Shown here piece after piece: positions 33,051 through 64,000 of a stretch of 64,000 nucleotides of DNA. How positions within the stretch are numbered: position 1 is the first letter of the stretch; the number at the start of each line of letters is the position of its first letter. This stretch comes from Blasia pusilla (Eukaryota), in contig CM114271.1 in the NCBI GenBank assembly GCA_050084515.1, positions 27,900,001-27,964,000 of the forward strand, in the 5' to 3' direction. The position numbers were made by a program, and so were the translations under genes. The notes under the pieces were generated by a model that saw nothing but the letters and a program-made list of their open reading frames with translations, had not been told where the DNA came from and ran no database searches.

Positions 33051-33224
33051 AGAACTTATCATTTATGGGAGCCTTTTAATTTCTTGAGAAATAAGCTTGT
33101 GAGTGTAGAAGCTACTTACTTGCATGTAGAGCTCTCGTGAAGATTGATTGGAATCTTGAAGCGTGAATGTGTAGTACGTCCTCCATCTAATAGTAACGCT
33201 ACTATTCCGGATGACGCCACAGCC

Positions 33225-38473: not shown

Positions 38474-39321
38474 AAAGACGTGATACCTTACTTGCCTTCG
38501 TGTTCCATACTCCTCTATTTCTTCCTCCCTCCACCTCCACTCCCTCCTCCCTCATTGCTCCACTCATCCTTGCCTTGCCTTCCATCATGAACTATAAGTG
38601 TGGGTCCCATATCATAGAACCCATGTCCGTGGATATGTCAAGACTTGTCAGTCCATGTCTGTACTAAGGAAGGACTTGTCCGGTTTTGTGCAACCATGTC
38701 TGTCTTGGTATGTGTGAATGTCTCAAAGAGATATGCATTTACTCTTGGGATGAGATGCATAGCCTCTCACATCTAAATTCAATATAGAATTTCCATAACA
38801 AAGTGGGAAAGGGAGTGCCCAGAAACCCTATATATGTATAATCTTGTTGCGTGCATATATATTATTCATAACAGAAATATATGCTATCATCCATACAACA
38901 CATAAAACCCAAAAGCACACACAAATATGAAAACCAGATACATACACTATCATTTTTGAAACAAGACTCTCTCTCCCTCCTCTCTCTCTCTAAAATTGTT
39001 AAGATGGTCATACCAGAATTGTTCAACACATTCAATAGCCTTGATTCATTGCCCAAAGCTGTTGCATTGGTAAGTAATGTCTATTGAGGTTCCTAGTCAG
39101 GTAAAGTAGATGGTGTGATGAAGAGTTTCTTGGTTGACACTTGGAAGCTCCGCACGAAAATATTGTTTGGTCAGCACTCACACTATATGAGAGTGTCTCC
39201 CTCCTCTCATATGATATCTTATTCGCTTCTTCCTCTCTCTACACCCATCCCAGTCTCAAGCAGCGTCCAACCAGGGCGCAGGATCTATGGTTGCAAGACT
39301 ACAACAGACACTTTTTAATGA

Positions 39322-42287: not shown

Positions 42288-42532
42288 CCACCCACAAGCC
42301 GTTTAACTTCTACTTGTGCTATCCTCAAGGCTTGCTTACCCTTTTGGTTCATCCTTATTTCAATAAATGGTCCCTCCCTTTTCTCCTTAGATGTGTCTCA
42401 ATGCACAAGCATATCATGACTAGCCGTGACCTGAGGCACAATCTATGGCTCTTGGCCATCTTGGTTTATTCCCTAAACTTCTTGCTCATCTTGACCTTTC
42501 TTTAGCAAATCACTTCGAAGAGTCACATCTCT

Positions 42533-43030
42533 TAGGATAGATCGGTGAGATCTAGTAGAGCGCCTTTATGAGTAGCGGAGGACAACTCAATTGGCTGAGG
42601 ATGACCTGCTGAGGCCCCGGGAAACATGAGAGAGCAGGTTTCCCCTTCGTTTCGGCTCATTTGGAGCCATATTGAGGAACTTAATATTTTAGGTAAGTAC
42701 TATTTTGAGTATATGACCAAATTTCTATTTTTGGTAAGTGCCCTTGACCTCCTACATTAGGTCAAGAGCCAAGGAGATGACTTGGGAGCATAGGTTACCA
42801 TGGAGAGAGCTTGGGAGAGGGGAGGGGTATACCTCAAGGAGAGAGAGCTTGAGAGCTCATTCTCTTTTGTTGAACCTCTTGGCATGAAGTGGCGGAGCTA
42901 TGGTCTTGCTTGCCTTGTGTGTGTAACCCAAGCCTCTCATTAGGAGAGTGGGTTTGGTTTGACATTGAGAGACACAAGAGAGAGTGCACACATGTAGGAA
43001 CTATAGTGTTGTGAGAGAGATTTGATCTTA
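42533..43030 (+). repeat. ~500-bp LTR of the DNMT3-gypsy family (homologues at 37960-38473 and 50095-50589, both minus)
   Basis: Three copies share sequence from TA(A/G/T)GATAGATCGG to (GAT/CAC)CTTA. It lies upstream of gag in A and B and just downstream of the integrase-PHD stop in C1. Confidence 0.8.
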
Positions 43031-44776
43031 CTTAACAAAGAGAGAATGAGAGAGTGAGAGAGCTTCATGGGGGAACTTGCTAGTCACTCACTGTTTTTGC
43101 ACCTTGGGGACCGTGTTCCTTGTTCAACGGCTCATGGGAGTGCTCACCGGAGCAAGTGTTGCTTTGATTATTCTTTGCATTTGCCGATTTTTTGTATGGA
43201 AGAGTGGCGCGTGGAAGCGCTGCCCAATTTCTGATAGGGATTGATTATGGAGGCGGGTTGCCCAATGCCGCTGCTCTGGGCATAGCTTGTTGATTTGTAT
43301 TTTTATAGGTTTTACATTTTCGTTGGGAGAAATCAGCACGGAAGCGCTGCCAAATTTTGTGTAGGAGAAAGAGACATTGGGCTTTACAACAGTTATTGTC
43401 ATTTTTTACTAGAATGTTCGATTCTAAATAGTTTTTGACGTTATTGTAGATCGTGAAGTTGTGCACGCTATGCAACAAAAAATGCATAATTTGGAGTTGC
43501 GAGCAAAAAGTCATGGTCAATTTTGCAAAACTTCCATTTCCAGGCGAGTTTTAGGGTTAAATTGTTCAAACCCTAAATCGGCCGCCTAGCGGGCGGCGGT
43601 CGTCGCCGCCATAGTCACCGCAAATGGTTTGCCATCAACAATCAACCATCACCATCAACGGTCCACCATCCATTGTCCACCCTTTGGTTGTCATTGCCGC
43701 CATTACGGAGTGGAGGGTCTTCCACGACGTTCGTTGATTCTATGACTTGCCTTGCCACAACGTACTTTGTTTTGGCCGCCACCGTCATCGCAGTTTTGTC
43801 GTCAACAAATGATGGTAGATGACATCTGGTTATGGTGTTTGAGTTTTGATTTCATGCTGCTATGTTGTGATTGGTTTCCACTCGACGACAGTCAAGTACC
43901 GTGCCGTGACGCCCGTAGCCGCAACGCGCCGCCGATTGCTGCGCCGTGCCGCTCGTGGCCGCACCGCACCGTCTCGATCACGGAACCGCTCCTTCACTAA
44001 GGAGCAAAGCGTGCGAATTTTTGATTGAGGAGGGTATGTTGCCGAGTGCCGCATATTGAGGAGGGTATGCTTTCCGAGTGCCGTGCTGCTTGTAGCCGTT
44101 CCGTGCCGCCAGTGCCGCATTGGACCGCTCGACCTGCACCACACATCGAGGAGGTTGAGCAGCGTCAATACGAGAGGAGTACGACTTGCTTATTGGAGGA
44201 GATGTCTTCACGACCGAGTTGGGGTCAAGATTTGCAGTTGTCGAGGAGCGACATCGACATTATTGTGAGGTTATCCATTCTGCTCTTTTGACCTGCACGT
44301 GTGAGGGATTTCTGAATATTGGGAAGTTATTTGGGATATTGGGTTTCGTGTTGATGCTAGGAGCATCGATGATGTATGGGTTAAGGGGACATAGACCTGT
44401 GGGATGTCCAGAGTTGAGGATGGTTTGTCGATGAGACGATACATCAGTGATTTTCCGCACCACGCTGCTTGTTGCCACACAACACACGTCTTAGTGAGAG
44501 AGTGTAGATTGAGTGCCGCATGTTTAGTTTGCGTGATTGAGGGATTACTCGCAAGATTGAGAGTGATCATATGAGAGGGGCACAAGGGCCATCACGGCAT
44601 CCTTTTAGGATTTTGAGAGGCAAGGTAGTGGACCTGATGGTAGCTCTAGAGAGTTTACGCGGAGTGGTGCGGGGTTTCGAGGGTCTCCACGTGAGAGACC
44701 ACCTCGATCTCAATCTGTGTCGTCTTCAGACAAGGGGTAGCATATAGAGGAGTGTGTTAGTGATCCACCGTATACA

Positions 44777-45876
44777 TTGATTGGTCCTACCAGTTGGGCG
44801 TACAAGATGGATGACCAGGGTAGAAGACAACGTAGGTTTTTGGGTGTTGTAGGCACTATAGAGCTACACGACTTCATTGCGGAGTTTAGGAGTTGGTGTG
44901 ACTCACAGCGGGCGAGGAACTCTAGAGAGTTCAACCCATTTACAACATGGAATGATATGTTCCAGCATTTAGAGGGGATGCCCATGGGCAATTACCATGA
45001 GTTCTCCAACACATATGCCCAGGAGATTGAGGCATGGCGACTCTACTATGACCCACACTATGTGTCATGGACGGAGTCGTTCCCAGACGAGGAGGAGGAG
45101 TTAGGAAAGGCTACTTCCTCTTCCAATAGTGACGTTTTAGGAGGGGTCACTCGCACTAGAGCTATTGCACAATCTAGTCGGGTTCGTCCCATGTTCAACC
45201 CCATGGTTGAGTTCTCCGCCAAGTTGAGGGCCAGCTACCAAGGGGTACGGACAGAGAAGTTGCGGAGCATCCACGACTTCCAGAGGCACCCGGGTGAGAG
45301 TTTGCGTGAGGCTTACACTCACTTGCGTTGGTTGATCAACGTCACTCACGGGGTGACAGAGGCTCACGTTATCCAATCATGGTACGCGATGCTGGATCGG
45401 ACCATGTGGACACGTGTGCGGGAGGGGGTGCTTCTTATGAACACCTACCCTACGTTGAGAGATGTTTTTAGGACTGCCAAGAACATTGAGCACAACACGA
45501 CAGAGGAGAGCGTAGCCACCATGGGTTCTAGGCGAGAGCAGTCATGATTGTCTGCACCACCTGTGCAGCAACGTGGACTCCGAGATAGGTCGATTGTGGC
45601 ATCACGAGCTCAGGGAGGATATCAGAAGGCCGTGCCACAGAGACCTGCGCCTTCATACTTCATATGCGGCTCAGCACCAACCGCCTAATATTAGATGGTG
45701 CTGCACCAGGAGGTTATCAATGTGACTATTGTCACAGATATGGTCATACACGCGCTAGGTGTTTCAGTTTACATCCAGAGTTACGTACGGAACGAGGACC
45801 AGAGAGGGCACCAGAGCGAGTAGTCGGTCCGGGTGGGGCTAGAGGTCGTGCACCAGGTGGTCCCGTTGGGGGATGA
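44777..45876 (+). pseudogene. gag of copy B with CCHC knuckle
   Basis: ORF 44777..45547 (FIAEFRSWCD...FQRHPGESLREAYTHL) and CDYCHRYGHTRARC at ~45720. Confidence 0.75.
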
Positions 45877-46424
45877 GGAGCTGGAGTTTCCCGACAGGGT
45901 GGTGGAGCTGCCCGTGGAGGAGGTAGAGTCCCACCACCTAGACGTGTTGAGGGAGACGCCGGGCGTGAGGCTGGGATGGCTACTTAGATACAAAAACTAC
46001 AGGAGCAGATTGCCGCTATGGCATTGAGGTTACCCGATGCCGAATCCGTGGCATCAACATCATATGGAGTAGCCAAGGACATGGAGGATCCTCATTGGAT
46101 GTGCGGGGTTGCCCAAATGGAGGCCGCCGTAGTTGTGACACGTGGAGCATCTGCAGAGTGGGATCCACAACGAGGGGAAGCCAGGAAACAGACTAGGCTT
46201 CCTTAGTCTTTCACGTTGTCTGAGGCGATGAGGACCCCATCGATGTGTCCTCATCAAAGTTCTTGGAGAATTGGTGATGTTGTTGGTGTGTAGGCACGGA
46301 GGGAAATGGGAGAAGCAAGTGCGACGACTCCTATTGCTGATGCTCAGGAGGGGCATGTGTCGAGCACGTAGTTGGGGGCGGCCATCGTTGTGTACGCGCT
46401 TCTTTATTTTCTGCTTCCGATGTT

Positions 46425-47100
46425 ATGACGTTGGGAGGTACGCCCGCCGAGGTTTTTCGGCTGGCCACTACGCTATGTGAGCGTGGAGTTGGAGTTCCTT
46501 CATCACGTTCAGAGGTGATTGTAGAGGAGGTGATGGACCTGCCCTTGGAGCGGATGCTCAGGCCGTCCATGTCAGATTCATGGCAGGTTGCGGTTGCTAG
46601 GATGGCGGAGATGCCCGCTAGACCCGCTATAGAGCGTGCCATGGTTTCTCCTGGTGTTGTGTTGCTGGATAACCAGAGAGAGGTCTTCCAATTGGTGAGT
46701 CTCGGAGGTAGAGCTTTTAGTCGGCAACGCGTCTTGTTGGATTCAGGAGCGCAACCCCTGATGTTGGGTAAAGCGTCATTCAGAAGGATTGGGCTTGACG
46801 AGAGCCGATGTAGAGCGTTGTCCGTTCCAGATATAGATATCCTTGGGTGGAGCAAGAACCACATAGTATATCACCCGACAGGAGGTTGTGGTGAGGATTC
46901 GCCTAGGACATCCTACAGATGAATCCGTGGTGCGAGCCAAGACGATAGTGATTGATGCAGAGTCCTACAACGTCTTGGTCGGTGGAGCAATGTTATACCC
47001 GATGGGGTTTTCCTTGGATTACTAGGAGGAGTCAGCGTCCTACAGACTAGGATGGCAGTCAGGTGATGGGTGCCTTAGCTCATTACCCGTTTGATTCACA
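46425..47100 (+). pseudogene. Retroviral-type aspartic protease of copy B
   Basis: RVLLDSGAQPLMLGK...SYNVLVGGAMLY. Confidence 0.8.
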
Positions 47101-47449
47101 AGTGCAGTGATCGAGCAACGGCTAGGAGAGATGGTGACCTTAGCAGCATTTTGTAGTGCCATCACTTGGCCTAGTGATTTGATTGAGGGACATATCTATG
47201 CAGAGGATACTCCCATTCTTGACATTTCTATGGAGAGGAGTGTCATGGTAGCCGCATCAGTTTGTGGAGGAGAGGTGCCGCTTTGGGGCTCTACTGCGGA
47301 GCTTCGACGCTTAGCCACTGAGCATGTGCAGACCGCGTGGAGCGAGATATTTGCATTAGAATGTGATAGGTTAGAGGAACCCCAGGTAGGTAGGAGTGCT
47401 ACTAAGACCCCTTTGGACACCACCCCGATTGTGTGGTGCATCCTTGAGA

Positions 47450-48380
47450 AGGGTATTCGGATGTTGGATCTCTTTGGAGGGATCACCACTGTGTTAGCTG
47501 CTGTTTTGCACTCAAGAGTGTGTGTGCAGCAATATCTGTATGTGGAGATTGATGATGTTGCAAGGCGCGCTTTACTTCACCATGTGGCACTTTTACGCCT
47601 CTTTTTTCCCGACTTGTTGTCTACGTCCGCCATTAAGGCTAGAGTTCCCTACCTAGGGACATTTCATTGTTGGGGGCGCAGGACTTGGATCGGGTAGGGA
47701 CCATAAACTTGGTCATTGCTGGTTGGCCATGTCAGGGCCAATCGAGTGATGGACAAGGTAGCGGGTTAGCTGACACTCGCTCTAGGTTGTTTTGTGAAAT
47801 GATGCGGATCTTGCGACATTTACAAGAGCATCAGTCTCGTTCTCCAGCATATATTTTGGAGAATGTGACAATTTTGGGCAATTCGAGGTCCCACGTGGTG
47901 ACAAGTGCACATCAAGTGCGCGCAAGGATCGGCCCGGTAGTGTTGTTAGATGCAACGAGTGTGGGTTCACGAGCACATCGCCCATGTCTTTGGTGGACCA
48001 ACTTGGTACCACATGAGATATTGCGGAGGGTTTATGCGAGAGTGGAGCATCCCTTCGATTTGTTGGTAGATTCTATATTGGATCCAGGCCATCGATCACA
48101 GGCAGTGAGGCATGATGATCGACCGCCGTGGACTATGGTCAACAAGATTGGCATGCCACGAGCCGCCTTTCCCACATTGGTGAGTTTTTCCTATGCATTC
48201 AAGGAGGCCGGACTTGGCTTGGTTTGGGATGACCATGTACAGAGGTTGGTGGAGCCCAACGCCGATGAGCGAGAGCAAGCGATGGGATTCCCCATAGGAG
48301 TGACGGTAGTACCGTCACTATCCGAGACATCACGACGTCATGTCTTGGGTCAGGCGATGGACCTGAACTGCTTGACATAG
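47450..48380 (+). pseudogene. DNMT3-like C5 cytosine methyltransferase domain inside pol (copy B, one frameshift near 47640)
   Basis: Motifs in canonical order: I IRMLDLFGGI, II YLYVEID, III DIS, IV LVIAGWPCQG, V GLADTRSRLF, VI YILENV, VII LLDA, VIII RAHRPCLWWTNL, IX EREQAMGFP, X SRRHVLGQAMD. Confidence 0.92.
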
Positions 48381-48689
48381 ATTTTCAGCTTAGGAGTTGT
48401 TGAGCAGCGTCATTTGAGGATGCGACAGATCATAATTTTTGCATTGGTGAGCCCCATGCCTACCGAGATGGTTGAGGCAATGGCTGGGGGCGAGACCCGA
48501 GGAGATCGACACACCACGGGTGATCGAGAGAGACAACCTTGGATGTTTTGCAGATACGCCAAGAGATGATAGCCACAACATCGAGCGTGGTTCCGGGAAC
48601 TGCACGTGGAGATGGGAGTTCTATTGTTTAAGATAGGGTTGCACCATAGCAACCATCGACATCTACGCCGGAGAGTCCTATCGTAGTCA

Positions 48690-49962
48690 CGATGGAGACT
48701 TGGAAGCCAGATACGGACCCTAAGTTGACGGGAGGAGAGCGGCGTCGGATACACCAATTCCTTAGGAGTTATAGGAGCTGTTTTGCATTTAGTATGCATG
48801 ATTTGGATACATTGAAGGGTCCAGGGATCCGCATTGAGTTGTCGAGTGACACGCCAATCTTCCGACGACCCTACACAAACAATGACATGGAGAGGGCTCT
48901 GATTTAGAGTAGGAGCCAAGACTTGGTTGGAGCAGGACTAGTGGAGATGTTGCATGGAGAGTATGCATCTGCCATTGTCATGCCCGACAAGAAGGATGTG
49001 CATGGCAACTAGACGGATAGGCGAATGTGTGGAGATTACCGACCTATAAATTGGCAAACAAAGTCCGATATGTATGCCATGCCCACCCTTGAGGAGATCT
49101 TCGATGCAATTGGGCATGCAAAGGTCTTTAGTTCATTGGATTTGCGAGCCGGATACCTATCAGATTGGAGGACAGGCAGAAGAGGGCATTTTGGGGCATC
49201 AATCCTCATGGGAAGGATTGTTTGTACCAGTGGTCGTTCTTACCATTCGGGTTAAAGAACGCCCCGGCTGAGTTTCAGAGGGTCATGGATAGGATCTTGG
49301 TAGGTCTGGATTTTGCTAGGTGTTATATTGATGACATCATAGTCATTAGCGCTACGGTTGAGGAGCATGAGCGACATCTAGAGGAGGTATTTCGACAATT
49401 GCAGTTATATGGGCTAAAGCTATATCCAGGCAAGTGCAAGTTCTTCTACGACCAGATTGAGTACTTGGGTCATACAATATACCCTGGGGGCCTTGGTGTG
49501 CAACAGACAAAGGTAGAGGCTATTTCACGCATTCCACGCCCTACAGATGTGAGTCGAGTTCGTGCATTCATGGGATTGCCGAACTTCTATCGACGGTACC
49601 TCAAGGGTTTCAGTTCAATTGCGAAGCCGCTAACCTTGATGACCAAGGTGGATCAGGAGTGATACTCGGGGGATGAGCAAGAGAGAGCATTTCAGATGCT
49701 TAAGGACATATTGACGTCCGTACGCATATTGAGGAGACCGATCAGGGGTCGTCCTTTCTAGTTGCATACAAATTGGAGCATGTTGGGGCATCGAGCCATG
49801 CTCACCTAGCATGATGATGATGGTAGAGAGTTTGTGGTGGCTTATGCTAGTCACTCGAACAATGCTGCAGAGGCGAAGTATAGCTTGTATGAGGATGAGT
49901 GCTTGGCTGCAGTGTGGGCTGTCGCACATTTCAGATGTTATCTATTCGGCAATCCCTTTACC
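48690..49962 (+). pseudogene. RT and RNase H of copy B
   Basis: RMCGDYRPIN, FSSLDLRAGY, LPFGLKNAPAEFQRVMD, CYIDDIIV, IEYLGH, VVAYASHSN, ECLAAVWAVAHFRCYLFG; several premature stops. Confidence 0.9.
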
Positions 49963-50619
49963 ATGTTGTGCGCATACACATTGCTACACAACATACATCG
50001 TTGTCATCGAACACACACACAAACACACACAATCCCATGCTAACTCATGGCATCCATAGACAGAGGCGAGAAGTACCAAATATCTCCAAAATAATAAGAT
50101 CCAATCTCTCTCACAACACCATAGTTCTCACATATGTCCACTCTCACATGTCTGTCTCAATGTCAAACCAAACCCACTCTCCTAATGAGAGGCTTGGGTT
50201 ACACACACAAGGCAAGACCATAGCTCTGCCGCCTCATGCTAAGAGGTTCAACAAAGAGAGAATGAGCTCTCAAGCTCTCTCTCTTGGAGGTATACCCCCT
50301 TCCCTCTCCCAAGCCCTCTCAACGATAACATATGCTCGTAGGTCATCTCCTTGGCTCTTGACCTGCTGTAGCGGGTCAAGGGCCACTTCCCAAAGTGGAA
50401 ATTCAACTATCCCCAATATGGAAACTTACCCCAAATAGTAAGTTTTCTATATGGCTCCAAATAAGCCGAAACGAAGGGGAAACCTGCTCTCTCAGCTTTC
50501 CCAGGGCCTCAACAGGTCATCCTCGACCTCTTGGGCATGTCCTCCACTACTCGTGCAGACGCTTTGCTAGATCCCACCGATCTATCTTAATCCGAATCAA
50601 AATCTACCTAGTATCTCCT

Positions 50620-50760
50620 CTATATACATCTGAGACACATCCATCGTCCCCGAGGAATCCTAGTAAGAGGTGGCGTCAAACATGCCATATGCCAACCTCT
50701 CAAACATCCATCATAGACTAGCATCGTGGCCGCACCATGAGTAGAACCACACAACATACA
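50620..50760 (-). pseudogene. PHD finger at the integrase C-terminus
   Basis: CMLCGSTHGAATMLVYDGCLRGWHMACLTPPLTRIPRGRWMCLRC* (C4HC3 with one C>Y). Confidence 0.88.
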
Positions 50761-52153
50761 ACGCAAGCCTGCAGGAACTACTGTTGAGCTTGGATCTGCT
50801 GTACCATCAATGTTAGGAAGATGACATGGCGCACAATTACGCACATGGTCCTTCCATACCATACCATTGCGTCTCTCCAGGAAGAGAACACCGGATGGCA
50901 AAACGTCGCGCACTCTCAAGATAGTGCACCCTGCAGTCACATCCAACGTCGTCGGTGCCGTCTGCTACAAGTAGACATAATCTCCCTGATGAAACCTCCA
51001 AATAGTTGGTCGATAATCACCACCCGAATAGTCGCATACCTCAACGTATCCCGATGTTGCGCAATCGCCAAGTTCTCGAACGCAATGGGCATCACTCTCC
51101 AAAATAACTCCGCCCTTTGAGAACATGCTCGCATACATACATCTGGGTCATCAAGGTTGTCGCGCCCCTACTCTCCTTGAACGTCAATCTTTAGTGTTGC
51201 GGAAGCGTGCGTTCAGTAGGTCACGAACTCATCGCCGATCTGCACCCAAACACGCACTCTCGTTAGTCGGGTTTGGCCAACCGGTGTTCCAACCCACCGA
51301 GTCCTAAACTCGGCGTCTCATCAAGCTCAACCTTCCTTAGTTCCTAGCTCCCAACACATGGCAAGTCCTTCAAGACTTGGACGGACTTCTGGTTAGTCCA
51401 GGGGATCTCAAACGGCACTTGCACGCCTAGCGATCCCAACTGTTCAACGGTCCTCGTGTGAGTTCCGAACCGAGACCCAAGTAATTGAGTCGTGGCGTGA
51501 AATCCAAGAGGGATGTCTAAAATCGACTCAATGGACTTGGTGCAGGTTTTCCAACCCAACGCCCAAACTCGCGTTCCGTTCCATGCCCTTGAGCGCCCAT
51601 GGCGCCCAAAGTGGGGTTTGGGTTCCAAGCACTCTCGGAGACCTTCCCCTTACTAGTACTTCTGGGGTTCTCCAATAACCCCTCCCCTTTGGGAAAAGAG
51701 GTTCGGGCCCTTCATTGTGGCCCTCAACCCGACACCACTTACAGTCGTTTTGGGTTGTATCTCGGCCGCTGCTTATGCGTTTGCAGCGATCTTTAGTGCG
51801 TTTTGACCGGCTCTCCATAAGCTTTCCAACGCATCCTTATTTGCTCCAAACGCATCTTGGTACTAAAAGTTATGGCTAGAAATACAGTCAGAAACTCTCA
51901 AACGCAAGTGGCGTTCCAAATCCGGATCTTTCCTTTGGCAACCCACTTCCTAGACTCGACTTCTTTCAAGTCTCATTCGCGTTTGGTCCAGGTTTTTGAG
52001 TTGCGACCATCACATCTGAAACGCGACTTTCGCTCGCGTCTCGTCTCTTGTCTCCTCTTTGAGACAACTCCAACGCAAGAAACCATCTTAGCGTGAGTCC
52101 GCTAATGTTCCGATGTTCCGCTTGGCACTTGTTTGGTCATGAGGGTCGCGACA

Positions 52154-52167
52154 CTCACCCCTCTTTT
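52154..52167 (-). other. Polypurine tract of the chromovirus
   Basis: AAAAGAGGGGTGAG immediately before the 3' LTR. Confidence 0.85.
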
Positions 52168-52844
52168 AGAGTTTGATGCCCTCATCAACGCAAACCTTTA
52201 TTATGTCAAGTCTCCTGGGCAGCCTACCCCTTGACATTGAATTGCGTTCTGGTGGCTAACCCGCAATTCCTCTTAGTCTTTAGTTGTCGCTTTGCCCCAC
52301 TTAGAATTATTAGCCTCTCATCTTCGATAAGCCTGGACTAGTTCCAAGGAACTAACCTATCAAATAAGCTAACTAAGTGTGCAACCTTAGACTCTTTCGA
52401 CTCATTACTGTAAACATCACACCTGTTTACCTGGTCCACAAATCGTACTACTATTGGGTCGCTCTCGTATTCGACTTAGGCGCGTCACTAAGTTTACTTA
52501 TGTGGCCACAAGTAAGATCACCCCAAGCCCCAAGACAGACTTCATCTGCCCCGCCGACGCTAGGGCGAGCCCGAGTGTAATCCAACACAAGGTCCTGTTC
52601 TAGGTGCTTATCCACATACGAGCTCTCACCTCAAATACTCCTTGTCTGTCTTCTTGTCGTACATTCTAAGTCTATGATGAACGACTCATAGCCATGCACT
52701 ACCACATACAAATTGCAATCAACACTGGTATCGAATCTCCAAATCCATACACTCCTTTATTGCAACACTAGCATATTCTAGTTACAACGGCCTTCGGCCC
52801 AAGATTCCAGTGATTACAAGTCATGTCTCTAGCTTCTCCTCATA

Positions 52845-53270
52845 CTAACGTATGTGCTTCGCTTGTGTTCGCTTGAAGTCACACAACAACTCTTGCGCGT
52901 GTTCCAAATCCGCCTCCGCAATCCAAGTCGCCTCCTTCACATGGTAGCCCTTCCATTTTACCAAGTATTCATACTTGTTGGCCCGACGCCTCGAACGTAA
53001 GATGGTCTCCACCTCGAACTCCGGCTCCTCATTTACGATGACCAGGTGCGGTCTCACCACCTGTCTCCGCTCGAAACGTCCATTATCTTGAAGGTATTTC
53101 TTCAATAATGACACATGAAAGGTTGGGTGAATCTTGAACTCGTCCGGCAGCCTCAACGTATACACATCCTCAAACGGGTTTGCCACAATCACATACGGTC
53201 CAGCATACTTGGCAGACAACTTAGTAGACAACTCTTTCGGAAGAGTGAGATTCTTCACACTCAACCACAC
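52845..53270 (-). CDS. Integrase GPY/F module and chromodomain of the chromovirus
   Basis: KLSAKYAGPY...IHPTFHVSLLK...EFEVETILRSRRR...YLVKWKGY...ATWIAEADL. Confidence 0.9.
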   Translation of the reverse strand: MWLSVKNLTLPKELSTKLSAKYAGPYVIVANPFEDVYTLRLPDEFKIHPTFHVSLLKKYLQDNGRFERRQVVRPHLVIVNEEPEFEVETILRSRRRANKYEYLVKWKGYHVKEATWIAEADLEHAQELLCDFKRTQAKHIR

Positions 53271-53299
53271 TTGTTCTCCGACTTGAATCGATTTTGGCG

Positions 53300-56200
53300 C
53301 CGACTCTTGTTAGCATGCTTCACGTACCTCATTTGAGCCTTTGCAAGACTTAGCCTCGCGCTCACTTCTCGTTCTCGCATCTCTACCAACAAACTTTCTA
53401 CCGCCGCTTGTCGTGTTCGTGCCAATGTAGTACCCTTCGAAGGGCTAGATCAAGAGGCCCTTCGGCTCTCGTCCATTTGCCAGGAGAAACGGAGATTCTC
53501 CTATTGCGAATGCTTGGTCGAGTTGTAGCAAAGATTCCGCCATGCTCGACCACTTGACCCAATCGCGTTGATCAAGACGACATAATTCCTCAAATCTTGA
53601 TTCACGATAGAGTTTACCTTTTCGATCTGTCCATCCGTCGTGGGTGGAAAGCCGTCATGAAACTCAGCTTGGTCTTAAACCTTCAACAAGTGCTTCGAAA
53701 AGCATGGTAAACTTTGGATCCCGATCTGAAACAATGCTCCTCGGCAAACCATGAGCACGCCACCACTATCGAGGAATAGTTCGCGTCAGATACGCCGTTC
53801 ATGGAATCCACCGTCGGCACGAATCTCACCAACTTGCTAAACCGATCAACAATCACAAGTATAGCGTTGTATCCCAGATTCGGAAGACTCGTGATAAAAT
53901 CCATACTCACACTTTGCAAGGGTCCTTCGGGATCGGCAAGGGATGCAACAAGCCCTGTTTCTTATCATAAGAGACTCTATTCGCTAAGGAGTCACATGGT
54001 CTTCACATATTGAGCAACATCCTCCTTCATAATGGGCCAAAAGAACCGCCGACAGAACACCTAGCGAGATTTCTCTCCTTTATGTCCGCCAAGGGCCCGT
54101 CGTGACATTCCGCTAACACCTTGGTTCGATTCCCGCCTTGCCCTACATAGATCCTACTCTGTTTGAACCTTAGTAAACCGTGCCTCAAACTTATGTTGGC
54201 CACCTTCTCAACCCCGCTTCAACTTCCTCGGTATTCCCTCGCTTGAGCATCCTTCATATATCCTTCACGAATCCTTCTCTCCGGATGTGTTTCCTTAGGG
54301 AACATTGCTCTCAAAACTGTGTCGTCGATGGCATGTGTTCCTCCTTGCGACTTAACGATCTGGAATCACATTATCTTTACCTGGCTTGTGGATCAACTCT
54401 ACATCCATCAGCAAGGTATCATGCCACCATGATTGTTTTGGTGTCACTCGATCCTCGGTCTCAAAATACTTGAGTGATATATTATCGGTGAATACTCGAG
54501 TCTGTGGAGCCCTAGATAATGCCGCCACTTCCTCAAGCAATGTACCACCGCATGAACAACTCTTTTCGTGAGTAGGCCATCTCCTTTCAGATCGCTAAGC
54601 TTCTTGCTCTCATATGCCACCGGTCTTCCTTCTTGCACCAACATTCCTGCAACCGCGAAATCACTAGCATCGGTATGCACTTCGAACGGTTTGTCAAACT
54701 TCGGCACCTTTAACACTAATTCCTGCGATAGAATCTGCTTCACTCGGGTTGAATGCCTCATTAACTTCCTGGGTCCAAGTCGTGTTGGCAAACTTTGCCG
54801 TCCAATCCGTGAGAGGTCTCACAATTCCCGAAAAGTTTTTTACATAAGTACGGTAAAATTGCACAGCACCTATGAACCTCCTCATCCCCTTTACAGTGGA
54901 TGGGGGTTCCCACTCGGAAATCGCTTTTACCTTTTCCATGTGTGGACTGACGCCATCTGCACTGACCACGTGACCCAAGAATTTGATCTTACTCAAACCA
55001 AATTCGCTCTTCTCTACATTTGCATACAGCTGATTTGCCCTTAGCTTAGACAAGACCGCTCTCACATGTCGAACGTGCTCCTCTAGTGACTTCGAATAGA
55101 TAAGTATATCATCGATATAGATGATAACATACTCATCCATTTCCTTGTGAAAAATGGAGTTCATCAATGTGGTGAACGTCGGAGGCGCGTTACATAGACC
55201 GAAAGGCATCACTACAAACTCAAAGGAACCGTATCTCGTCCTGCACGCAGTCTTCTCACATCTGCCTCGGCAATCCAAATCTGGTAATATCCTGACTTCA
55301 AGTCAATCCTACTGAAATATCTCGCGCCTGCCAGCCTATCAAAGAGATTATCTATCCTTAGAAGAGGATAATTGTTCCGAACCACCACTTTGTTCAATGC
55401 ATGGTAATCAACACACAGCCTCATCTTTCCATCCTTCTTCTTTACAAAGAGAACAGGTGCTCCATAAGGTGACTTGCTAGTCCTAATGTAACCCTTTTCC
55501 AAGAGCTCACTTAACTGCTTTTTCAACTCAAGAAGTTCCTCCTGATTCAACCTATATGGTGCTTTTGAAGGCGGTTGGGAACCGGGTATGATCTCTATCT
55601 TATGATCTACGGCTCTATGCGGCGGCAATTCAGTCGGAAGCTCATTTGTCAAGACATCCTCAAACTCCTTGACCACTTCCTGGAGTGGTTCTGGGATTCC
55701 CCTTGAAGCAGCGTCCTGATCTCTGCGTATACTGCTTGTAGCCTCCTCCACTTGTCTCATCAAGCAGAGAAATCCATCCTCCAACTCAGTCATGCTCCTC
55801 CTTGTGATCGAGTTCACCAACTCCATCTTCGCTGGAACCTCACGGACCAACCGCACTCAGAATCGTTTGCCTTTTAGCAAGACGCTCAACCTCAATGGTC
55901 GGGCGTCTTAACTCCACCTCATACGCATCTAGGAATGTATTCCCCAAAACTCCGTCAATGCCGTCCATTTATACATCTGTGAAATTCTCCTTCAACTCGA
56001 ATACCCGCATCCCCTCTTGTCAAACCCAAGACCAAATCAGAAGTCCGATGAGACTTGCCTCCTGCAAATCCCACTCGATGGGCTCGTCCGCCTTAGAGGT
56101 AGATGCCCCAGTTCCTTCACGATTCTCGGGCTTAGGAAGGAGTGCGGCACTGTATCCACGAGCAACAACACATCGCGATCAGCAATCTTGGATCTTAGGT

Positions 56201-57345
56201 ACACCAAATTGTGCGCCCTCTTGGTGACTTGAAGGGACGTCTCCATATCGCCCGCCAACAGATGCTTAGCAGCAAACGCAATCATACTCCCATTACTAAC
56301 CTTCGGTTTCAAACACCCTTTCGACAGGTGACCCGGTTCGCCATAGTTGTAGCATACGACCTTGCCGTTCCCTGTCTTTGAGTGTTGTCCTCCTTTCGGC
56401 CGCATGAAGTTCCACTCGTTTCTTTGCCTGCCGGCATTTACGACTCCTGGTTCGTGTTGGCCCCCACTCCGCCTCTTTTGAACGCCTCCTTATTTTTCGA
56501 CTTCTTCGAAAAAACTTTTGACTCGAAGGGTTTCTGGGTTTGGACCTCATCGTCCCCAATCCGCTCCGCTAGATTCAGAAGGTCCGCACAGGTCTCTGGC
56601 AACGTCGGCATTCGGTAAAGGGCCTTCTCAGCGCTCGGCTTGAGTCCACTAATGAAGATAGCCTTCTTCGCGTGCTCATCCATCTTCGGACTAGAAGTCG
56701 GGCCGCACTAAACTCCCTCACATACGCGCTTAAGGAACCACTCTGCCGCATCCGCACGCATTCCACCGTGTCACGCAACCCTTGGTACTCCGGAGTGAAC
56801 CAATCCCCAATCAACTTCTTGAACTCCTCCCAACTCAGAGGTGACTCACCGCCCAAATATTCCTCTCGTTGAGCGGTCCACCATTGCAGAGCATGATCCT
56901 TAAGGAAAGTAACGGCTACCGTCACCTTGTCCTGCTCAGCAGCCTTCTGCGCCTTGAAGTACAGTTCCAGTTCCGTAAGGAAATCCTTCACTTTCCGCGA
57001 GCGCCCCACTCCAGTAAATGGCGTGGGCAGGTTCGTCTTGCAGAGCTTTTTGCCCGCACTCGGGTTTCGAGTGGCCTCTAACTCCGCAATCCGCTTGCTT
57101 TGCTGGGACATCTGCTCCACCAACACCTTCAACAAGTCCAACGTCTGGCTCGACTCCGTCCTTTCCCCTGAGTTTGGGCCCACTGGCCCCGCGGAAGGAG
57201 TCGCCACTGGGACGTCCTCACGACTGGCGTTCAGCTCTTCGGGAGTCTCCGACTCCTCTATAGCTTCACGGTCCGGCATTGGTTCCTCTCTCGGTTCACG
57301 TCGCTTGATTCGGCGCTTCTTGGGTTGTTCTCCCTCGATCGCCAT
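53300..57345 (-). pseudogene. gag-pol of the chromovirus, frameshifted
   Basis: Gag ORF 56575..57351, CYNYGEPGH knuckle, LLVDT protease, [41 protein letters not shown]. Confidence 0.9.
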
Positions 57346-57480
57346 CTCCAAGCCAACTCACTCAGATCTCCTCCTCGTTTCTTGCGTCCCTCCTTGAGCG
57401 TCCGAGTCTAGCCGCTACCTTGAAATTTCCCAAGCATCCGGCTGATCCCACGACCCCAAGTTGTCGCTCACCAAGGATAA

Positions 57481-57492
57481 GCTCTGATACCA
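57481..57492 (-). other. Primer binding site (initiator tRNA-Met) of the chromovirus
   Basis: TGGTATCAGAGC 2 nt inside the 5' LTR boundary. Confidence 0.92.
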
Positions 57493-58543
57493 CTTGTCGC
57501 GCCCCTACTCTCCTTGAACGTCAATCTTTAGTGTTGCGGAAGCGTGCGTTTAGTAGGTCACGAACTCATCGCCGATCTGCACTTAAACACACACTCTCGT
57601 TAGTCAGGTTTGGCCAACCGGCGTTCCAACCCACCGAGTCCTAAACTCGACGTCTCATCAAGCTCAACCTTCCTTAGTTCCTAGCTCCCAACACATGGCA
57701 AGTCCTTCAAGACTTGGAACAGACTTCCTGGTTAGTCCAGGGATCTGAAACGGCACTTGCACGCCTAGCGATCCCAACTGTTCAACGGTCCTCGTGTGAG
57801 TTCCGAACCGAGACCCAAGTAATTGAGTCGTGGCGTGAAATCCAAGAGGGATGTCTAAAATCGACTCAATGGACTTGGTGCAGGTTTTCCAACCCAACGC
57901 CCAAACTCGCGTTCCGTTCCATGCCCTTGATCCGCCCCGCGGCGCCCAAAGTGGGGTTTGGGTTCCAAGCACTCTTGGAGACCTTCCCCCTTACTAGTAC
58001 TTCTGGGGTTCTCCAATAACCCCTCCCCTTTGGGAAAAGAGGTTCGGGCCCTTCATTGTGGCCCTCAACCCGACACCACTTACAGTCGTTTTCGGGTTGT
58101 ATCTCGGCCGCTGCTTATGCGTTTGCAGCGATCTTTAGTGCGTTTTGACCGGCTCTCCATAAGCTTTCCAACGCATCCTTATTTGCTCCAAACGCATCTT
58201 GGTACTAAAAGTTATGGCTAGAAATACAGTCAGAAACTCTCAAACGCAAGTGGCGTTCCAAATCCGGATCTTTCCTTTGGCAACCCACTTCCTAGACTCG
58301 ACTTCTTTCAAGTCTCATTCCGCGTTTGGTCCAGGTTTCTGAGTTGCGACCATCACATCTGAAACGCGACTTCTCGCTCGCGTCTCGTCTCTTGTCTCCT
58401 CTTTGAGACAACTCCAACGCGCAAACCATCTTAGCATGAGCCCGCTAATGTTCCGATGTTCCGCTTGGCACTTGTTTGGTCATGAGGGTCGCGACAAAGG
58501 TCCTGCATCTCACCAACATCTCGATGAATGGCCGCAGGTAAAT

Positions 58544-58730
58544 CTTAGCAATAGTCCTTGCAGGCTTGCGGTGTATGTTGTGTGGTTCCGCTTGTGGTGC
58601 AGCCACTATACTAGTCTGTGATGGGTGTTTGAGAGGATGGCATATGGCATATTTGACACCACCTCTCACTAGGGTTCCTCAAGGATGATGGATGTGTCCC
58701 AGATATACATAGAGTAGGTAGTTCTACATT
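58544..58730 (+). pseudogene. Inverted second copy of the integrase PHD finger
   Basis: Plus strand LRCMLCGSACGAATILVCDGCLRGWHMAYLTPPLTRVPQG*WMCPRY lies between two minus-strand integrase segments. Confidence 0.85.
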
Positions 58731-61700
58731 CCAAGTTCTCGAATGCCATGGGCATCACTCTCCGAAACAACTGAGCCTATGGAGAACATGCTCGCATCCA
58801 TACATTTGGGTCATCAAGGTCCAGCACCTCACCAACATCTCGACGAATGGCTGTAGGTAAATCTAGCTCTCGGCCATAAAGTAGCAAGTACGGTGAAAAT
58901 TACGCTAAGGATGCCTTCTTGCTGAATCTGTATCCCATCGCCAACTACCGCAACTGGAGGTCCCAATCTCCTAGGTGACCTCTCTGCAAGCCATACTTGC
59001 ATAAACCCCTCTTCACCGTTTGCACAACTCTCTCGGCTAATCCATTCGCCTCGGGATGATCTCGCAAAGTTGTGCGGTGGTCGATCAGTGCCTGATTACA
59101 CAAGGCCTGGAACTCACTGCGAAATTTGCTACCTTGGTCTGTCAACACCTCAACCGGTGCACCATAATGACTCAGCACTCTGTCAAGGAAGGCATAAGCC
59201 ACTCCCTCACTTGCTTTGTCAGGCAATGCTACCAACTCGATCCACTTCGAGAAGTACTCGACCATCACCAACACATAACGATTGTGATCCTCCGTCAAAG
59301 GCAAAGGTCTGGCAAAATCCAAACCCCATCTATACCCTAAGCCCATGATTGGTAATGGATGCAATTGTGGAGTCGGAGCATTGAACGATGCTCAGACCCG
59401 ATCACACACCATGCACCTGGCAATAAATTGCTGAACGTCAGTCTGCATGCCTCACCACCAATACTGAATCTGGAGCAAGTTGTACGTCCACTTCATCCCA
59501 AAGTGACCCAACTCCTTGTGGGCATGTTGCAGTAGATGTGCTCTTTGTGAAGGATGCGGCACTACGCATACTCTACCATCCTCCGAAACCCTCAAAACAT
59601 GTGTCCCCTCCCAACGGAACCGTCTGGCCCGCTGTAGGATCTGATCCCGCTCTCTAGCATCCACGGTGCTCGCAACGCTGCTAGTACGAAGGTACTCCAA
59701 GACTACTCCATCATCATGAATATCTCGGCCACCTATCGTCTCTTCAGTGGCCTCGGGATCCAAGGACTCTCCACTAGACCTCGCCATCGAAGTCTCCACA
59801 CTTTGGCTCTCCAAAGCCAACATGCCTAAATAGGCTGACGCGTGCCATCCTGGCACTGACTCCTCATCACTCTCTCCATGCCATCGAGCTCTAGTCGCAT
59901 CTCGCTGACTCGGGCATGGGTTACGACTCAACCCATCTGCATCCTGGTTGAGCGTCCCAGGTCTATGTACCACATGAAAATCATACTCCTGCAACAACAG
60001 AGCCCATCTCGAAAGCTTCCCTGTAAGCTTGTCGGACTCCATCAACCACTTCAGTGGTTGATGATCAATGAAGATGGTAAAGGGATTTCCGAATAACTAA
60101 CACCTAAAATGTGTGACAGCCCACACTTCAGCCATGCACTCATCCTCATACGAGTTGTACTTCATCTCTGCAGCGTTGTTCGAGGGGCTAGCGTAAGCCA
60201 CCAGGAACTCTCTACCCTCATCATCATGTTGGGTGAGCACCGCTCCAAGCCCTAACATGCTCCAATCTGTGTGCAACTGGAAAGGAAGCCCCCTCATCGG
60301 TCTCCTTAATATGGGCGCGGACGTCAACCTGTCCTTGAGCATCTAAAATGCTTGCTCGTGCTCATCCCCCTAGTGCCACTCGTGATCCACCTTGGTTAGC
60401 AAGGTTAGCGGCTTCTCAATCGAACTGAATCCCTTGACGTATCGCCGATAGAAGTGTGCCAATCCCATGAATGCACGAACATGGCTCACATCTATAGGGC
60501 GTGGAATGCGTCAGATAGCCTCTGCCTTCGTTTGCTGAACACCAAGGCCCCCTGGATATATCGTATGACCCAAGTACTCAATCTAGTCGTAGAAGAACTT
60601 GCACTTGCTTGGATGTAGCTTCAGCCCATGTAATTGCAATCGTCGAAACACCTCCTCTAGATGTCGCTCATGCTCCTCAACCGTGGCGCTAATGACTACG
60701 ATGTCATCAATATAACACCTAGAAAAATCCAGAACAGCCAAGATCCTATCCATGACCCTCTGAAACTCAGCCCGAGCGTTCTTTAATCCAAATGGTAAGA
60801 ACCGCCAATGGTACAAACAATCCTTCCCGTGAGGATCCATGCCCCAAAATACCGTCTTCTACCTATCCTCCAATCTGATAGGTAGCTGATGGTATCCAAC
60901 TCGCAAATCCAATGAACTGAAGACTTTTGTGTGACCAATCGCATCAAAGATCTCGTGAGGGATGGGCATGGCAGACCTATCGGACTTCGTCTACCGATTG
61001 ATAGGTCGGTAATCCCCACACATCCGCCTATCCGTCCAGTTGCCATGCACATCCTTCTTGGCACGCATGACAGTGGCAGATGCATACTCTCCATGCGACA
61101 TCTCCACTTGTCTTGCTCCGACCAAGTCATGGCTCCTACTCTGAATCAGAGCCCTCTCCATATCACTGTACCTGTAGGGTTGTTGGAAGATCCGCGTATC
61201 ACTCAACAACTCAATGCGCATCCCCGGTCCCTTCAGCATACCCAAATCCTCCATGCTAAAAGCAAAGCAACTCCTATAACTCTTGAGGAACTGATGTATC
61301 CGGCGCCGCTCTCCTCCTTTCAACTTAGGGCCCATATATGGCTCCCAAGTCTCCATCGTGACTACGATAGGACTCTCTGGCATGGGTATCGGTGGTTGCT
61401 ATGGTGCAACCTTGTCTCGAACAACAACACTTGGCCGCTCTCCTACAGCCAACTGCAAACTCTGATCTCCTCCACGTGCAGTGCCCAGAACGATGCTCGA
61501 TGCTGTGGCTATCATCTCCTGGCGTACATGCAAAACATCCCAAGAAGTCCAAGGGTATCTCTCTTGATCTCCCCTAGTGTGTAGATCTCCTCGGGTCTCG
61601 CCCCCGGCCAGTGACTCCACCGTCTCGGTAGGCATGGGGCTCACCAACGCAACCGTTGTGATCAGTCGCGATCTCATACGGCGCTGCTCATCCACTCCCA

Positions 61701-64000
61701 AGTTGAGGATCCATGTCAAGTAGTTCAGGTCCATTGCCTGACCCAAGACATGGCGTCATGATGCCTCTGACACTGATGGTACTACCGTCACTCCTGTGGG
61801 AAATCCCATCACTCGCTCTCTTTCATCCGCGTTGGGCTCCACCAACCGCTGAACCTGGTTATCCCAAACCAAGCCAGGATTGGCCTCCTTGTATGCATAG
61901 GCAAGGCTAGGCGCGGCCTGCCTACCCTGTTGACCATAGTCAAGGATGGTCGATCATTGTGCCTCATTGCCTGTGATCGACGACCTGGATCCAGAATGGA
62001 ATCCACTAACAAATGGGAGGGGCGCTCCACCCTCGCATACGCCCTCCATAACACCACATGGGGCACCAAGTTGGTCCACCATAGACGCGGGCGATGGGCT
62101 CTAGAACCTACACTCGTCACATCCAAGAACACTGCTGGGCCAATCCAGGCACGTACCTGATGAGCACTCATCACCACCCGTGACCTGGAGTCTCCTAAGA
62201 TTGGCACGTTCTCCAGAATGTAGACTGGAGAACGAGACTAGTGCTCCTACAACTGCCATACAATCCTCAACATCTCACATAACAACCTAGATCGAGTGTC
62301 AGCCAGCCCGCTGCCTCATCCAGCACTCGATTGGCCTTGTCATGGCCAACCGACAATGACCAAATCAATGGTCCCTACTCGCTCTAAGTCCTATGCCCCC
62401 AGCAAGGAAATATCCCTTAGTAGGGAACTCTGGTGCCCCTGTACCGCGGACGTAAACAATAAGTCAGGAAAACGTAGGCCTTACTGCGCCACATGTCAAA
62501 ATGAGATGCGCCTCGCAACATCATCACTCTCCACATAGAGGTACTGCTACACTTGCACTCTGCCTTCAAAACAACAGCTAACCCGATGCTAATCCCTCCA
62601 AAGAGATCTAACACTCAAATATCCTCCTCCGGGATACACCACACAATGGGTGTGGTATCCAAGGGTGTCATCGTAGCACTCCCTGCTACCTCGGGTTTCT
62701 CAGACCCGTCACGCTCTGGTGCAAACGCCTTGCTCCACGCGGTTTGCACGTACTTATCTACCAATCGTTGAAGTTCCTGAATCCAACAAGATGCTTTGCG
62801 GACTAAAAGGCCTATCTCCGAGACTCACCAACTTGAAGACCTCTCCCTGGTTATCCAACAACACAACACCAGGAGAAGCCATGGCACGCTCTATGGCGGG
62901 TCTAGCGGACATCTCCGCCATCCTAGCAGCCGCAGCCTGGCATGAATTTGACGAGCATCCGCTCCAAGGGCAGGTCCATCACCTCCTCTGCAATCACCTC
63001 TGAATGTGATGCAGGAACTCCAACTCCGCGCTCACATAGTGAAACGGCCAGCCGAAAAGCCTCGGCGGGTGTACCCCCCAACGTCATAACATCGGAAGCA
63101 AAAAATAAAGGAGTGCGGTACACAACGATGGCCGCCCCCAACAACGTGCTCGACACATGCCCCTCCTGAGCATCAACAATAGGAGTCGTCGCACTTGCTT
63201 CTCCTATGGCCCTCTGTGCCTACACACCAACAACATCACCAACTCTCCAGGAACTTTGATGAGGACCCATCGATGGGGTTCTCATCGCTTTGGACAACGT
63301 GAAAGACTGAGGAAGCCTAGTATGTTTTCTGGCTTCCCCTTGTTGTGGATCCAACTCTGCGGCTACTCCACGTGTCACAACTGCGGCGGCCTCCATCTAG
63401 GCAACCCCGCACATCCAACCACGATCCTCCATATGATGTCGATGCCACGGATCCGGTATCGGGTAACCTCAATGCCATAGAGACAATCTGCTCCTGTAGC
63501 TGCTGTATCTGAGCAGCTATCCTAGCCTCACGTTCGGCGTCTCCCTTAGCGCGTCTAGGTGGTGGTACTCTACCTCCTCCACGGGCAGCTCCACTATCCT
63601 GTCAGGCCCCAACCTCTCTAGGCCCACCCGGATCGGCTACTCGCTCTAGTGCCCTCTCTAGCCCTCGTTCCGTACGTAACTCAGGATATAAACTGAAACA
63701 CCATACCTCTGACAATAGTCACACCAATAACCTCCTGGTGCAACACCATCCTCTCCTCCATGCTGAGGCACACGTCGATGACCCTGACGAGTGCAATCTC
63801 GCTGATGATGGGCTCCACCACATGACCAAGAAGTAATAGTAGGCGGCTGCTGCTGAGCCGCATATGAAGGTGGAGGTCTCTGTGGCAGGGCCCTCCAGTA
63901 TCCTCCCTAAGCTCATGGTGCCACAGTCGACCTATCTTGGAGTCCACATTGCTGCACAGGTGGTGCAGCCAATCGTGACTGCTCTCGCCCAAAACCCATG
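58731..64000 (-). mobile_element. DNMT3/PHD gypsy family copy C2 (gag end, partly deleted PR, MTase, RT, RH, IN), running off the window end
   Basis: Colinear with copy B: LLDSG ~62785, MTase 62620-61710, RT YIDD ~60710, RH LHTDWS ~60270, IN 59364-58731. Confidence 0.9.
61710..62620 (-). pseudogene. DNMT3-like methyltransferase domain of copy C2 (stops and frameshifts)
   Basis: LDLFGGISIGL...RDISLLG...IDLVIVGWP*QG...GLADTRSRLL...YILENV...RAHRPRLWWTNL...MGFP...LGQAMDLN; the catalytic Cys codon is TGA. Confidence 0.88.

Follow-up and report, generated by a model that had tools for sequence, protein, structure and literature searches.

The DNA analysed here is a stretch of 64,000 nucleotides (nt) from Blasia pusilla (GenBank assembly GCA_050084515.1, contig CM114271.1, positions 27,900,001 to 27,964,000 of the forward strand), called the window below, and all coordinates count from its first letter. 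It contains several copies, decayed and nested, of a bryophyte long terminal repeat (LTR) retrotransposon of the Ty3/gypsy type, whose modules are GAG, protease (PR), a DNA cytosine methyltransferase (DNMT), reverse transcriptase (RT), RNase H (RH) and integrase (IN), the latter ending in a PHD finger, which is the subject of this work. Read in order, the window copies show a GAG with a CCHC knuckle, an aspartic protease motif, a C5 cytosine methylase, RT, RNase H and integrase; the methylase profile PF00145 is matched by the DNMT open reading frame (ORF) of copy A (Table 1), in which the PCQ and ENV motifs are visible, and the integrase profile rve (PF00665) by an ORF of copy B (58945-59391). 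The gypsy-type succession RVT_1, RT_RNaseH, RT_RNaseH_2, Integrase_H2C2 and rve is found in relatives of the element, and tblastn gives the same order in the window.

The first of the two PHD fingers of the window (copy 1) closes an integrase tail. A minus-strand ORF of 114 amino acids plus stop (50620-50964) matches the Pfam profile PF00628 over its residues 69-113, and these final 45 residues cover the entire PHD model. The score is 34.7 bits (E = 1.8e-8) for the whole ORF and 37.6 bits (E = 2.3e-9) for the query 50623-50790, the curated gathering cut-off being 24 bits. The 68 residues ahead of the finger, in the same frame, correspond to the SH3-like C-terminal part of the integrase in P0034, an intact relative; this barrel stays below detection by the Pfam profile SH3_Tf2-1 at E ≤ 0.01, in the window ORF as in the relatives. 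Neither the tail ORF nor its relatives gave a Pfam match to a Chromo domain, whose place the PHD occupies. Upstream of the barrel, the tblastn pieces 51158-51024 and 51024-50626 lie in different frames, which places a frameshift between them. Downstream, a terminal repeat of about 505 bp (repeat R), running from 50590 down to about 50085, starts some 30 nt past the stop codon and also heads copies A and C. An earlier note on this DNA, made by a model from the letters alone, had described an integrase tail running into a PHD, the stop and the 3' LTR, with the PHD standing where chromoviruses have their chromodomain; for copy 1 the order of these parts and the place of the PHD are right, and taking the repeat for a 3' LTR is reasonable. 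A chromovirus nested in the same tail carries SH3_Tf2-1 and Chromo matches at that position, in an open ORF of 154 amino acids (52845-53309).

The second finger (copy 2) also exceeds the cut-off, with 32.6 bits against PF00628 (E = 8.1e-8, an internal stop being read as X), so that both sequences that the earlier note had taken for PHDs are real ones. The note had listed copy 2 beside copy 1 without mention of its plus-strand position, and a second integrase tail it is not: by blastn, 50612-50791 is 83.9% identical to 58720-58541 in inverted orientation, and copy 2 stands on the plus strand in a fragment of about 180 bp wedged between integrase pieces of the minus strand, and is thus not read as an integrase tail. 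Its inverted orientation, seen alike with blastn, tblastn and translation, led us to reject it as a second tail. The C4HC3 ligand set is incomplete in both fingers, with seven of eight ligands in copy 1 and six of eight in copy 2, where Tyr stands at ligand positions 6 and 8 and one stop codon interrupts the frame. Both are dead relics, since zinc ligands have been lost in each, a stop and a frameshift precede copy 1, and copy 2 belongs to an inverted fragment.

Table 1. Position of the PHD fingers, the element copies and the nested chromovirus in the window.
Feature	Position	Strand	Basis and remarks
PHD finger copy 1	50626-50760	-	Pfam PF00628 and translation; 7/8 zinc-ligand positions kept, Tyr at ligand 3
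Polyprotein stop codon	50620-50622	-	One residue past the last PHD ligand
Integrase C-terminal SH3-like barrel and linker	50761-50964	-	Shares the PHD frame; ORF and tblastn to P0034 residues 895-1027
Integrase tail upstream of the barrel	50965-51157	-	Broken: in-frame stop 50965-50967 and frameshift near 51024
Same integrase tail, continued beyond the chromovirus insertion	58502-58552	-	Read from the sequence
Inverted fragment with PHD copy 2	58541-58720 (finger 58572-58706)	+	blastn, tblastn, Pfam
Terminal repeat R (3' LTR or its first 0.5 kb)	50085-50590	-	Self-matches; far end uncertain
Copy A	42523-49986	+	5' repeat, GAG from ~44800, PR, DNMT (ORF 47643-48380), RT, RH; truncated in RNase H
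Copy B	58731-64000	-	GAG, PR, DNMT, RT, RH, integrase to motif AFENL; runs past the window end
Copy C	33189-38483	-	5' repeat, GAG-PR, DNMT-RT deleted internally, RH, integrase
Nested chromovirus splitting the integrase tail	51158-58496	-	LTRs 51158-52153 and 57494-58496, 97% alike

As the relatives show, the PHD finger belongs regularly to the element, kept by selection and fused to the C-terminal SH3-like barrel of the integrase. For the tail and the DNMT alike, the nearest named relatives come from Marchantia polymorpha, Calypogeia fissa and Sphagnum; these proteins share 60-78% identity with the tail and at most 65% with the DNMT. A search with the 114-residue ORF gave 49 proteins, one of them a host PHF12-like protein and the other 48 of transposon type; among these 48, PF00628 is found in 42, the integrase profile PF00665 stands together with the PHD in one ORF in 13, and all eight ligands are kept in 31. 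The remaining 17 include nine with ligand substitutions, six ORFs that end inside or before the finger, and two with a different C-terminus. Among the 31, most have 1 to 14 residues between finger and stop; P0037, P0046, and P0047 are the exceptions. Four relatives (P0034, P0036, P0039, and P0054) are RT-RH-IN-PHD proteins of 1033-1083 residues encoded in single ORFs; P0036 is a cluster of 226 sequences, and P0054 is derived from a transcriptome and marked as a complete ORF. P0043 joins DNMT-RT-RH-IN-PHD within one ORF, and P0198, a single ORF of 2710 residues, carries CCCH fingers at its N-terminus, then DNMT, RT, RNase H and integrase, and closes with a PHD.

A profile built on integrase tail and finger, run on 1.84 billion representative sequences, gave 459 matches at E ≤ 1e-30; the best 150 of these show one or two matching stretches each, nearly all of them spanning the integrase tail and the finger, and the C4HC3 set is kept in 135 of the 150. 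The eight ligands are invariant in our alignments A2 and A3, whose rows were selected for an intact finger. The in-frame PHD on which the earlier note's proposal hung is, by these counts and in P0198, retained in the intact members. Selection was estimated on 80 related loci from metagenome contigs, 27 of which have an undamaged finger. Over the 45 PHD codons, synonymous sites are saturated between subfamilies (pS 0.58-1.07), with pN at 0.25-0.47, and one pair of loci, L039 and L038, gives dN 0.069 and dS 1.32. The median dN/dS is 0.50, with values below 1 in 92% of pairs (190 usable of 351), figures that are biased downward because the sample is limited to copies with intact ligands, which somewhat lowers dN; closely related decayed copies are near neutral (0.79 for L040 vs. 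L001).

The finger goes together with the methylase. In 23 of the best 150 representatives the finger lies more than 1300 residues from the N-terminus, so that an upstream DNMT is detectable, and BLAST against the family DNMT finds one in the same ORF in all 23; Pfam PF00145 detects it at E ≤ 0.1 in 16 of these long representatives, and also in P0043 and P0096. In the reverse direction, a PHD is present in all seven DNMT polyproteins that reach the integrase C-terminus, namely six from a search with the window DNMT plus P0043; P0094, P0099, and P0104, from the same search, end before that point. Writer and reader in one polyprotein, as the earlier note had put it, are thus found in P0043, P0198, and each of the 23 long representatives. 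At the DNA level, a same-strand DNMT stands upstream, before RT, in 20 of the 31 related loci that have at least 5.5 kb of upstream sequence.

Two arrangements of these modules exist. The window type follows the order DNMT-RT-RH-IN-PHD and then stops; a commoner, more distant type has RT-RH-DNMT-IN-PHD followed by a C-terminal extension (22 of the 23 long ORFs). Judged from these sequences, the pairing of DNMT and PHD outlasted a reshuffling of the Pol order, and it may simply reflect common descent within a single clade. The extension, mostly of 120-510 residues in the 22 long ORFs, shows no recurring Pfam family among the 23 proteins scanned. It is conserved, reaching at least 150 residues past the finger in P0046, P0096, P0100, P0103, and about 77 of the best 150 representatives. 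In P0046, the D12 N6-adenine DNA methylase family is matched at a sub-threshold level (E 0.033, 14.3 bits vs. 22) and the sequence shows a DPFCGTGG motif; this may be a second methylase. The best full-length locus, L039 (976-8229), presents two ORFs in the same frame with a single stop between them, ORF1 of 1369 amino acids (GAG-PR-DNMT) and ORF2 of 1047 amino acids (RT-RH-IN-PHD); this stop, absent in P0043 and P0198, may be a readthrough signal or one mutation.

What such a finger might bind was approached through its class. A sequence search of the PDB with the window finger gave 76 matches, 60 of which were listed; the top of those listed, with E values from 4e-11 to 4e-4, comprises the second finger of KAT6A and of DPF2/3, PHF12, CHD4, and the first finger of KDM5A, KDM5B and Lid, and further ATXR5, AIRE, PHF21A/BHC80, ORC1b, BAZ2A/B, and UHRF1. 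We also built an AlphaFold model of P0002, a relative from Marchantia, from a 40-row alignment; its mean predicted local distance difference test (pLDDT) score is 72.8, with about 85-91 in the barrel (strands at residues 119-150) and 83-90 in the finger. The modelled finger superposes on DPF2/3, BHC80, ATXR5-H3, and BAZ2A with unmodified H3 at 0.6-1.9 Å over 48-53 residues, with 35-44% identity. Fingers of the DPF2/3, BHC80, ATXR5, and BAZ2A type read the H3 N-terminus with unmethylated K4 or R2. Two residues ahead of the His ligand, all 28 rows of alignment A3 have Gly, at a position where readers of trimethylated H3 lysine 4 (H3K4me3) typically have a cage Trp. Sequence and model both place the finger among readers of the unmodified H3 tail (DPF2/3, BHC80, ATXR5, KDM5, and UHRF1), and the likeness to KDM5- and UHRF1-type fingers that the earlier note had pointed out is a real one. 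The note had further compared it with the ADD domain of DNMT3; this comparison concerns function alone, and the finger itself is not ADD-like. We rejected an ADD-like finger as a candidate: what we see is a single canonical PHD of 45 residues instead of the GATA-like finger, atypical PHD and helix that make up an ADD domain, and no ADD entry, of DNMT3 or ATRX, is among the 60 listed matches. For the model as a whole, the top Foldseek matches are Tudor-PHD cassettes (PHF1, MTF2, and the TTD-PHD of UHRF1), at a root-mean-square deviation (rmsd) of 11-15 Å, so that the succession of barrel then finger is shared with them and not the arrangement.

We lean towards PHD-tethered integration into chromatin unmethylated at H3 lysine 4 (H3K4me0) in the active members of the family. 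After reverse transcription, the integrase bound to the cDNA ends would be held on nucleosomes by its PHD, which would bind the N-terminal tail of H3 with unmethylated K4, and new copies would land away from H3K4-methylated promoters. The element DNMT would be a separate module of the same polyprotein, acting on the cDNA or on the new copy; for other DNMT-bearing retroelements, methylation of the new copy has been proposed, according to the text of PMC5890265. The earlier note went further and suggested that the finger may steer insertion or methylation into heterochromatin, which overstates the reach of such a reader. H3K4me0 marks most chromatin outside active promoters, and the effect to be expected is therefore promoter avoidance rather than heterochromatin targeting. 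Nor does the heavy nesting of elements in the window, invoked in the note as fitting its proposal, discriminate between the readings: it is weak evidence, because insertions in repeat-rich DNA survive longer anyway.

Several points weigh against PHD-tethered integration, or against the regularity on which it is built. Ahead of the first Cys, where several H3K4me0 readers employ acidic residues, no such residues are evident in this family, the flank reading ...AGLRC and the first loop being often basic. PHD specificity is not safely inferred from similarity; indeed, DPF fingers act only as tandem modules and other close matches bind different ligands. Of the 31 loci with 5.5 kb or more of upstream sequence, 11 show no DNMT and may be degraded copies or true DNMT-less members. 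A flanking direct repeat is found in three of the 23 related loci with enough flank, and none was found around L039. One has to add the downward bias of the dN/dS values given above.

The alternative that survives best, although we hold it to be unlikely, is that the PHD serves the DNMT of the element in the way of the ADD domain of animal DNMT3. It would sense H3K4me0 and then recruit the methylase or license it, in trans or while the polyprotein is still uncleaved, with methylation of the new copy or of its surroundings as the outcome. The co-occurrence without exception in long ORFs (23/23, and 7/7 in reverse) speaks for such a role, and so do the position of the DNMT directly upstream of IN-PHD in 22 of the 23 and the retention of both modules in representatives whose full-length identity to P0198 is 27-38%. 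However, the window type has DNMT and PHD at opposite ends of Pol, about 1100 residues apart in P0043, with an in-frame stop between them in L039; all members seen have the finger joined to the integrase barrel, at the very position of the chromoviral targeting domain; the listed PDB matches contain no ADD entry; and the co-occurrence could come from mere descent within one clade. A stronger version, in which the DNMT and the integrase-fused PHD form an obligate reader-writer pair, inherited together throughout a large and old gypsy-like clade in spite of the reshuffled domain order, seems doubtful to us; the PHD would then play the part that ADD plays in animal DNMT3, limiting both integration and self-methylation to chromatin unmethylated at H3K4, and new copies would arrive already silenced.

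To a different ligand we give still less credence. PHD fingers bind diverse partners, and the finger could recognise a methylated lysine, another histone, a host protein or a nucleic acid, in which case targeting would follow another mark; the alignment shows no obvious acidic residues for sensing K4me0, and in the Tudor-PHD cassettes brought up by Foldseek a methyl-lysine is read through the barrel. The whole-model rmsd, however, leaves only domain content in common with these cassettes, and the barrel is the ordinary C-terminal domain of an integrase; none of the 60 listed PDB matches is known as an H3K4me3 reader, and Gly takes the place of the cage Trp. Finally, that the window PHD is a chance match or a host exon beside transposon debris, as the damage in both copies and the misalignment of copy 2 with any integrase might suggest, has next to no probability given the Pfam E values (2e-9 and 8e-8), a tail 60-78% identical to dozens of proteins, the 13 of 48 relatives with PF00665 and PF00628 in one ORF, and the match of nearly all of the best 150 representatives across integrase tail and PHD; we rejected it on the one-ORF integrase-PHD relatives and the profile matches.

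PHD-tethered integration can be set beside what is published on related systems. The closest is KnitGypsy-Dnmt3 of Klebsormidium nitens, a Ty3/gypsy element described by de Mendoza et al. (2018, PMC5890265) as having a Dnmt3-type methylase inside Pol, with its DNMT under purifying selection; the same text states that retrotransposon DNMTs methylate CG de novo, and a 2026 preprint names the Klebsormidium elements "streptophyte Gypsy-DNMT3" (bioRxiv 10.64898/2026.05.21.726589). The DIRS-like repeat layout given for KnitGypsy-Dnmt3 in the text of PMC5890265 resembles that of two of our loci, L040 (2190-2526, 10824-11393) and L014 (1676-2017, ~10236-10805), whose terminal repeats follow the order A-coding-B-A-B (A about 340 bp long, B about 114 bp), a DIRS-like arrangement although the element has a DDE integrase; the shared layout suggests that they belong to the same lineage. 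Unlike KnitGypsy-Dnmt3, with which we compare by its published description, the element has a bryophyte host here, and the window itself shows a plain direct repeat only; no protein named as coming from K. nitens turned up in our searches for relatives. The word PHD does not occur in the main text and legends of PMC5890265; the finger may be drawn in the figures or supplements, which lie outside that scope. Nor do the other texts cited here speak of a PHD in DNMT-bearing elements.

The same preprint (bioRxiv 10.64898/2026.05.21.726589) describes EpiLTRs, which are gypsy-like and encode an adenine methylase and a DNMT along with a chromodomain; they likewise unite DNA-methylation writers and a chromatin-targeting reader in one LTR retrotransposon; their DNMT is said there to be sister to DNMT4, their reader is a Chromo domain and their hosts are Euglena and C. 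tetramitiformis, whereas the reader here is a PHD and the lineage probably that of the streptophyte Gypsy-DNMT3. Chromodomains are reported to direct gypsy integration (Gao 2008, as cited in the text of PMC6673714 and bioRxiv 10.1101/2021.11.30.470311). Chromoviruses such as MAGGY are described as having, like our element, a histone-reader domain fused behind the SH3-like barrel of the integrase; they differ in that this domain is a chromodomain there and a PHD here, with H3K9me as the expected ligand there and, as the sequence comparisons would have it, the unmodified H3 tail here, and the RT of the window element is only 31-37% identical to that of the nested chromovirus.

PHD fingers are not new to transposons. 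The PHD of REM1, a Chlamydomonas element, reportedly sits in a separate, reverse-oriented ORF. PHDs are recorded in CR1 LINEs, Chlamydomonas REM1, Penelope-like elements of Chlamys, and Rehavkus (texts of PMC6673714 and PMC8557442), and a preprint counts 823 gene models of chromatin-transposon fusions, PHD and Chromo being the commonest, fused to RT or integrase (text of bioRxiv 10.1101/2021.11.30.470311). These share with our element a transposon-encoded PHD that is thought to read chromatin, and the co-occurrence of PHD with RT and integrase is already in print; the constant pairing of an integrase-fused PHD with a DNMT is not described in these texts. The plant LTR lineage survey PMC6317226 mentions neither PHD nor methyltransferase, and our full-text literature search, whose scope was the text apart from figures and supplements, returned no description of an element with a DNMT and an integrase PHD. 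PHDs in transposons and DNMT3-bearing gypsy elements have, each on their own, already been published; no description of their constant pairing was found in the text searched. As for host proteins, the finger, in the sequence comparisons or as modelled, resembles the H3K4me0 readers DPF2/3, KAT6A, BHC80/PHF21A, ATXR5, the first PHD of KDM5A/B, BAZ2A/B, AIRE, and UHRF1; unlike them, it is a predicted reader placed on the integrase of a retroelement, in which the acidic K4-sensing residues are not evident.

Chromoviruses are the textbook retrotransposons that choose their landing site by a histone reader. If the integrase PHD does what we propose, it would be a second, independent case, in which another kind of reader probably follows the opposite logic and responds to the lack of an active mark instead of the presence of a repressive one. 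With a DNA methylase carried by the element itself, the question of how mobile elements shape, and do not merely endure, the epigenome of their host would become directly testable, the nearest named relatives residing in Marchantia polymorpha, a laboratory model plant.

The remaining features of the window concern the state of the copies. Repeat R recurs at 81-84% identity, in direct orientation relative to the coding sense, on the 5' side of copy A (42532-43030) and of copy C (38474 down to 37955); its end is uncertain because copies A and C remain alike over 1.1 kb. No window copy keeps both of its ends, hence no target duplication can be read, repeat R heading copies A and C. Near the 3' repeat of the window, a B-A-B layout is represented by just a 7-nt match, which is no evidence for it. 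Copy C (36890 down to 33189) is interrupted by unrelated sequence directly before its PHD; on the minus strand of the sequence that truncates it (32700-33190), the translation shows a Helitron/Pif1-type helicase motif (…LIIWDEASM…).

The chromovirus is flanked by a perfect 5-bp target duplication, AAGGT (51153-51157 and 58497-58501). It is nearly intact and sits inside the integrase tail of the DNMT element, so that both kinds of reader-bearing integrase are found side by side. Once the flanks are joined across the target duplication, the integrase can be read continuously and matches copy B at 58860-58800. Followed on the minus strand from 64000 downwards, copy B runs to its AFENL motif at 58731 and is succeeded by the reversed PHD fragment (58720-58541), then by an integrase piece (58552-58502) that restarts about 130 nt earlier in the gene, then by the chromovirus, and lastly by the tail with PHD copy 1. 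The region 58497-58860 is thus a local duplication with an inverted insert, in which the reversed PHD fragment stands between two occurrences of the same integrase piece. The duplicated pieces are 84-88% alike, a divergence comparable to that of any two window copies (83-85%). Between PHD copies 1 and 2 we count 23 transitions and 4 transversions; the transition/transversion ratio elsewhere between element copies is 1.8-2.1. The layout looks like the product of two template switches, during replication or reverse transcription; two insertions with deletions afterwards may also have produced it.

Outside the element copies, a dinucleotide microsatellite (21451-21641) and its reverse complement 2 kb off (23531-23620) produce a ladder of 100% self-matches in 2-nt shifts. 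The window is not uniform in base composition: G+C is 32%, with an observed/expected CpG ratio of 0.39, at 1-4000 and reaches 47-52% in the nested-element block at 44001-64000.

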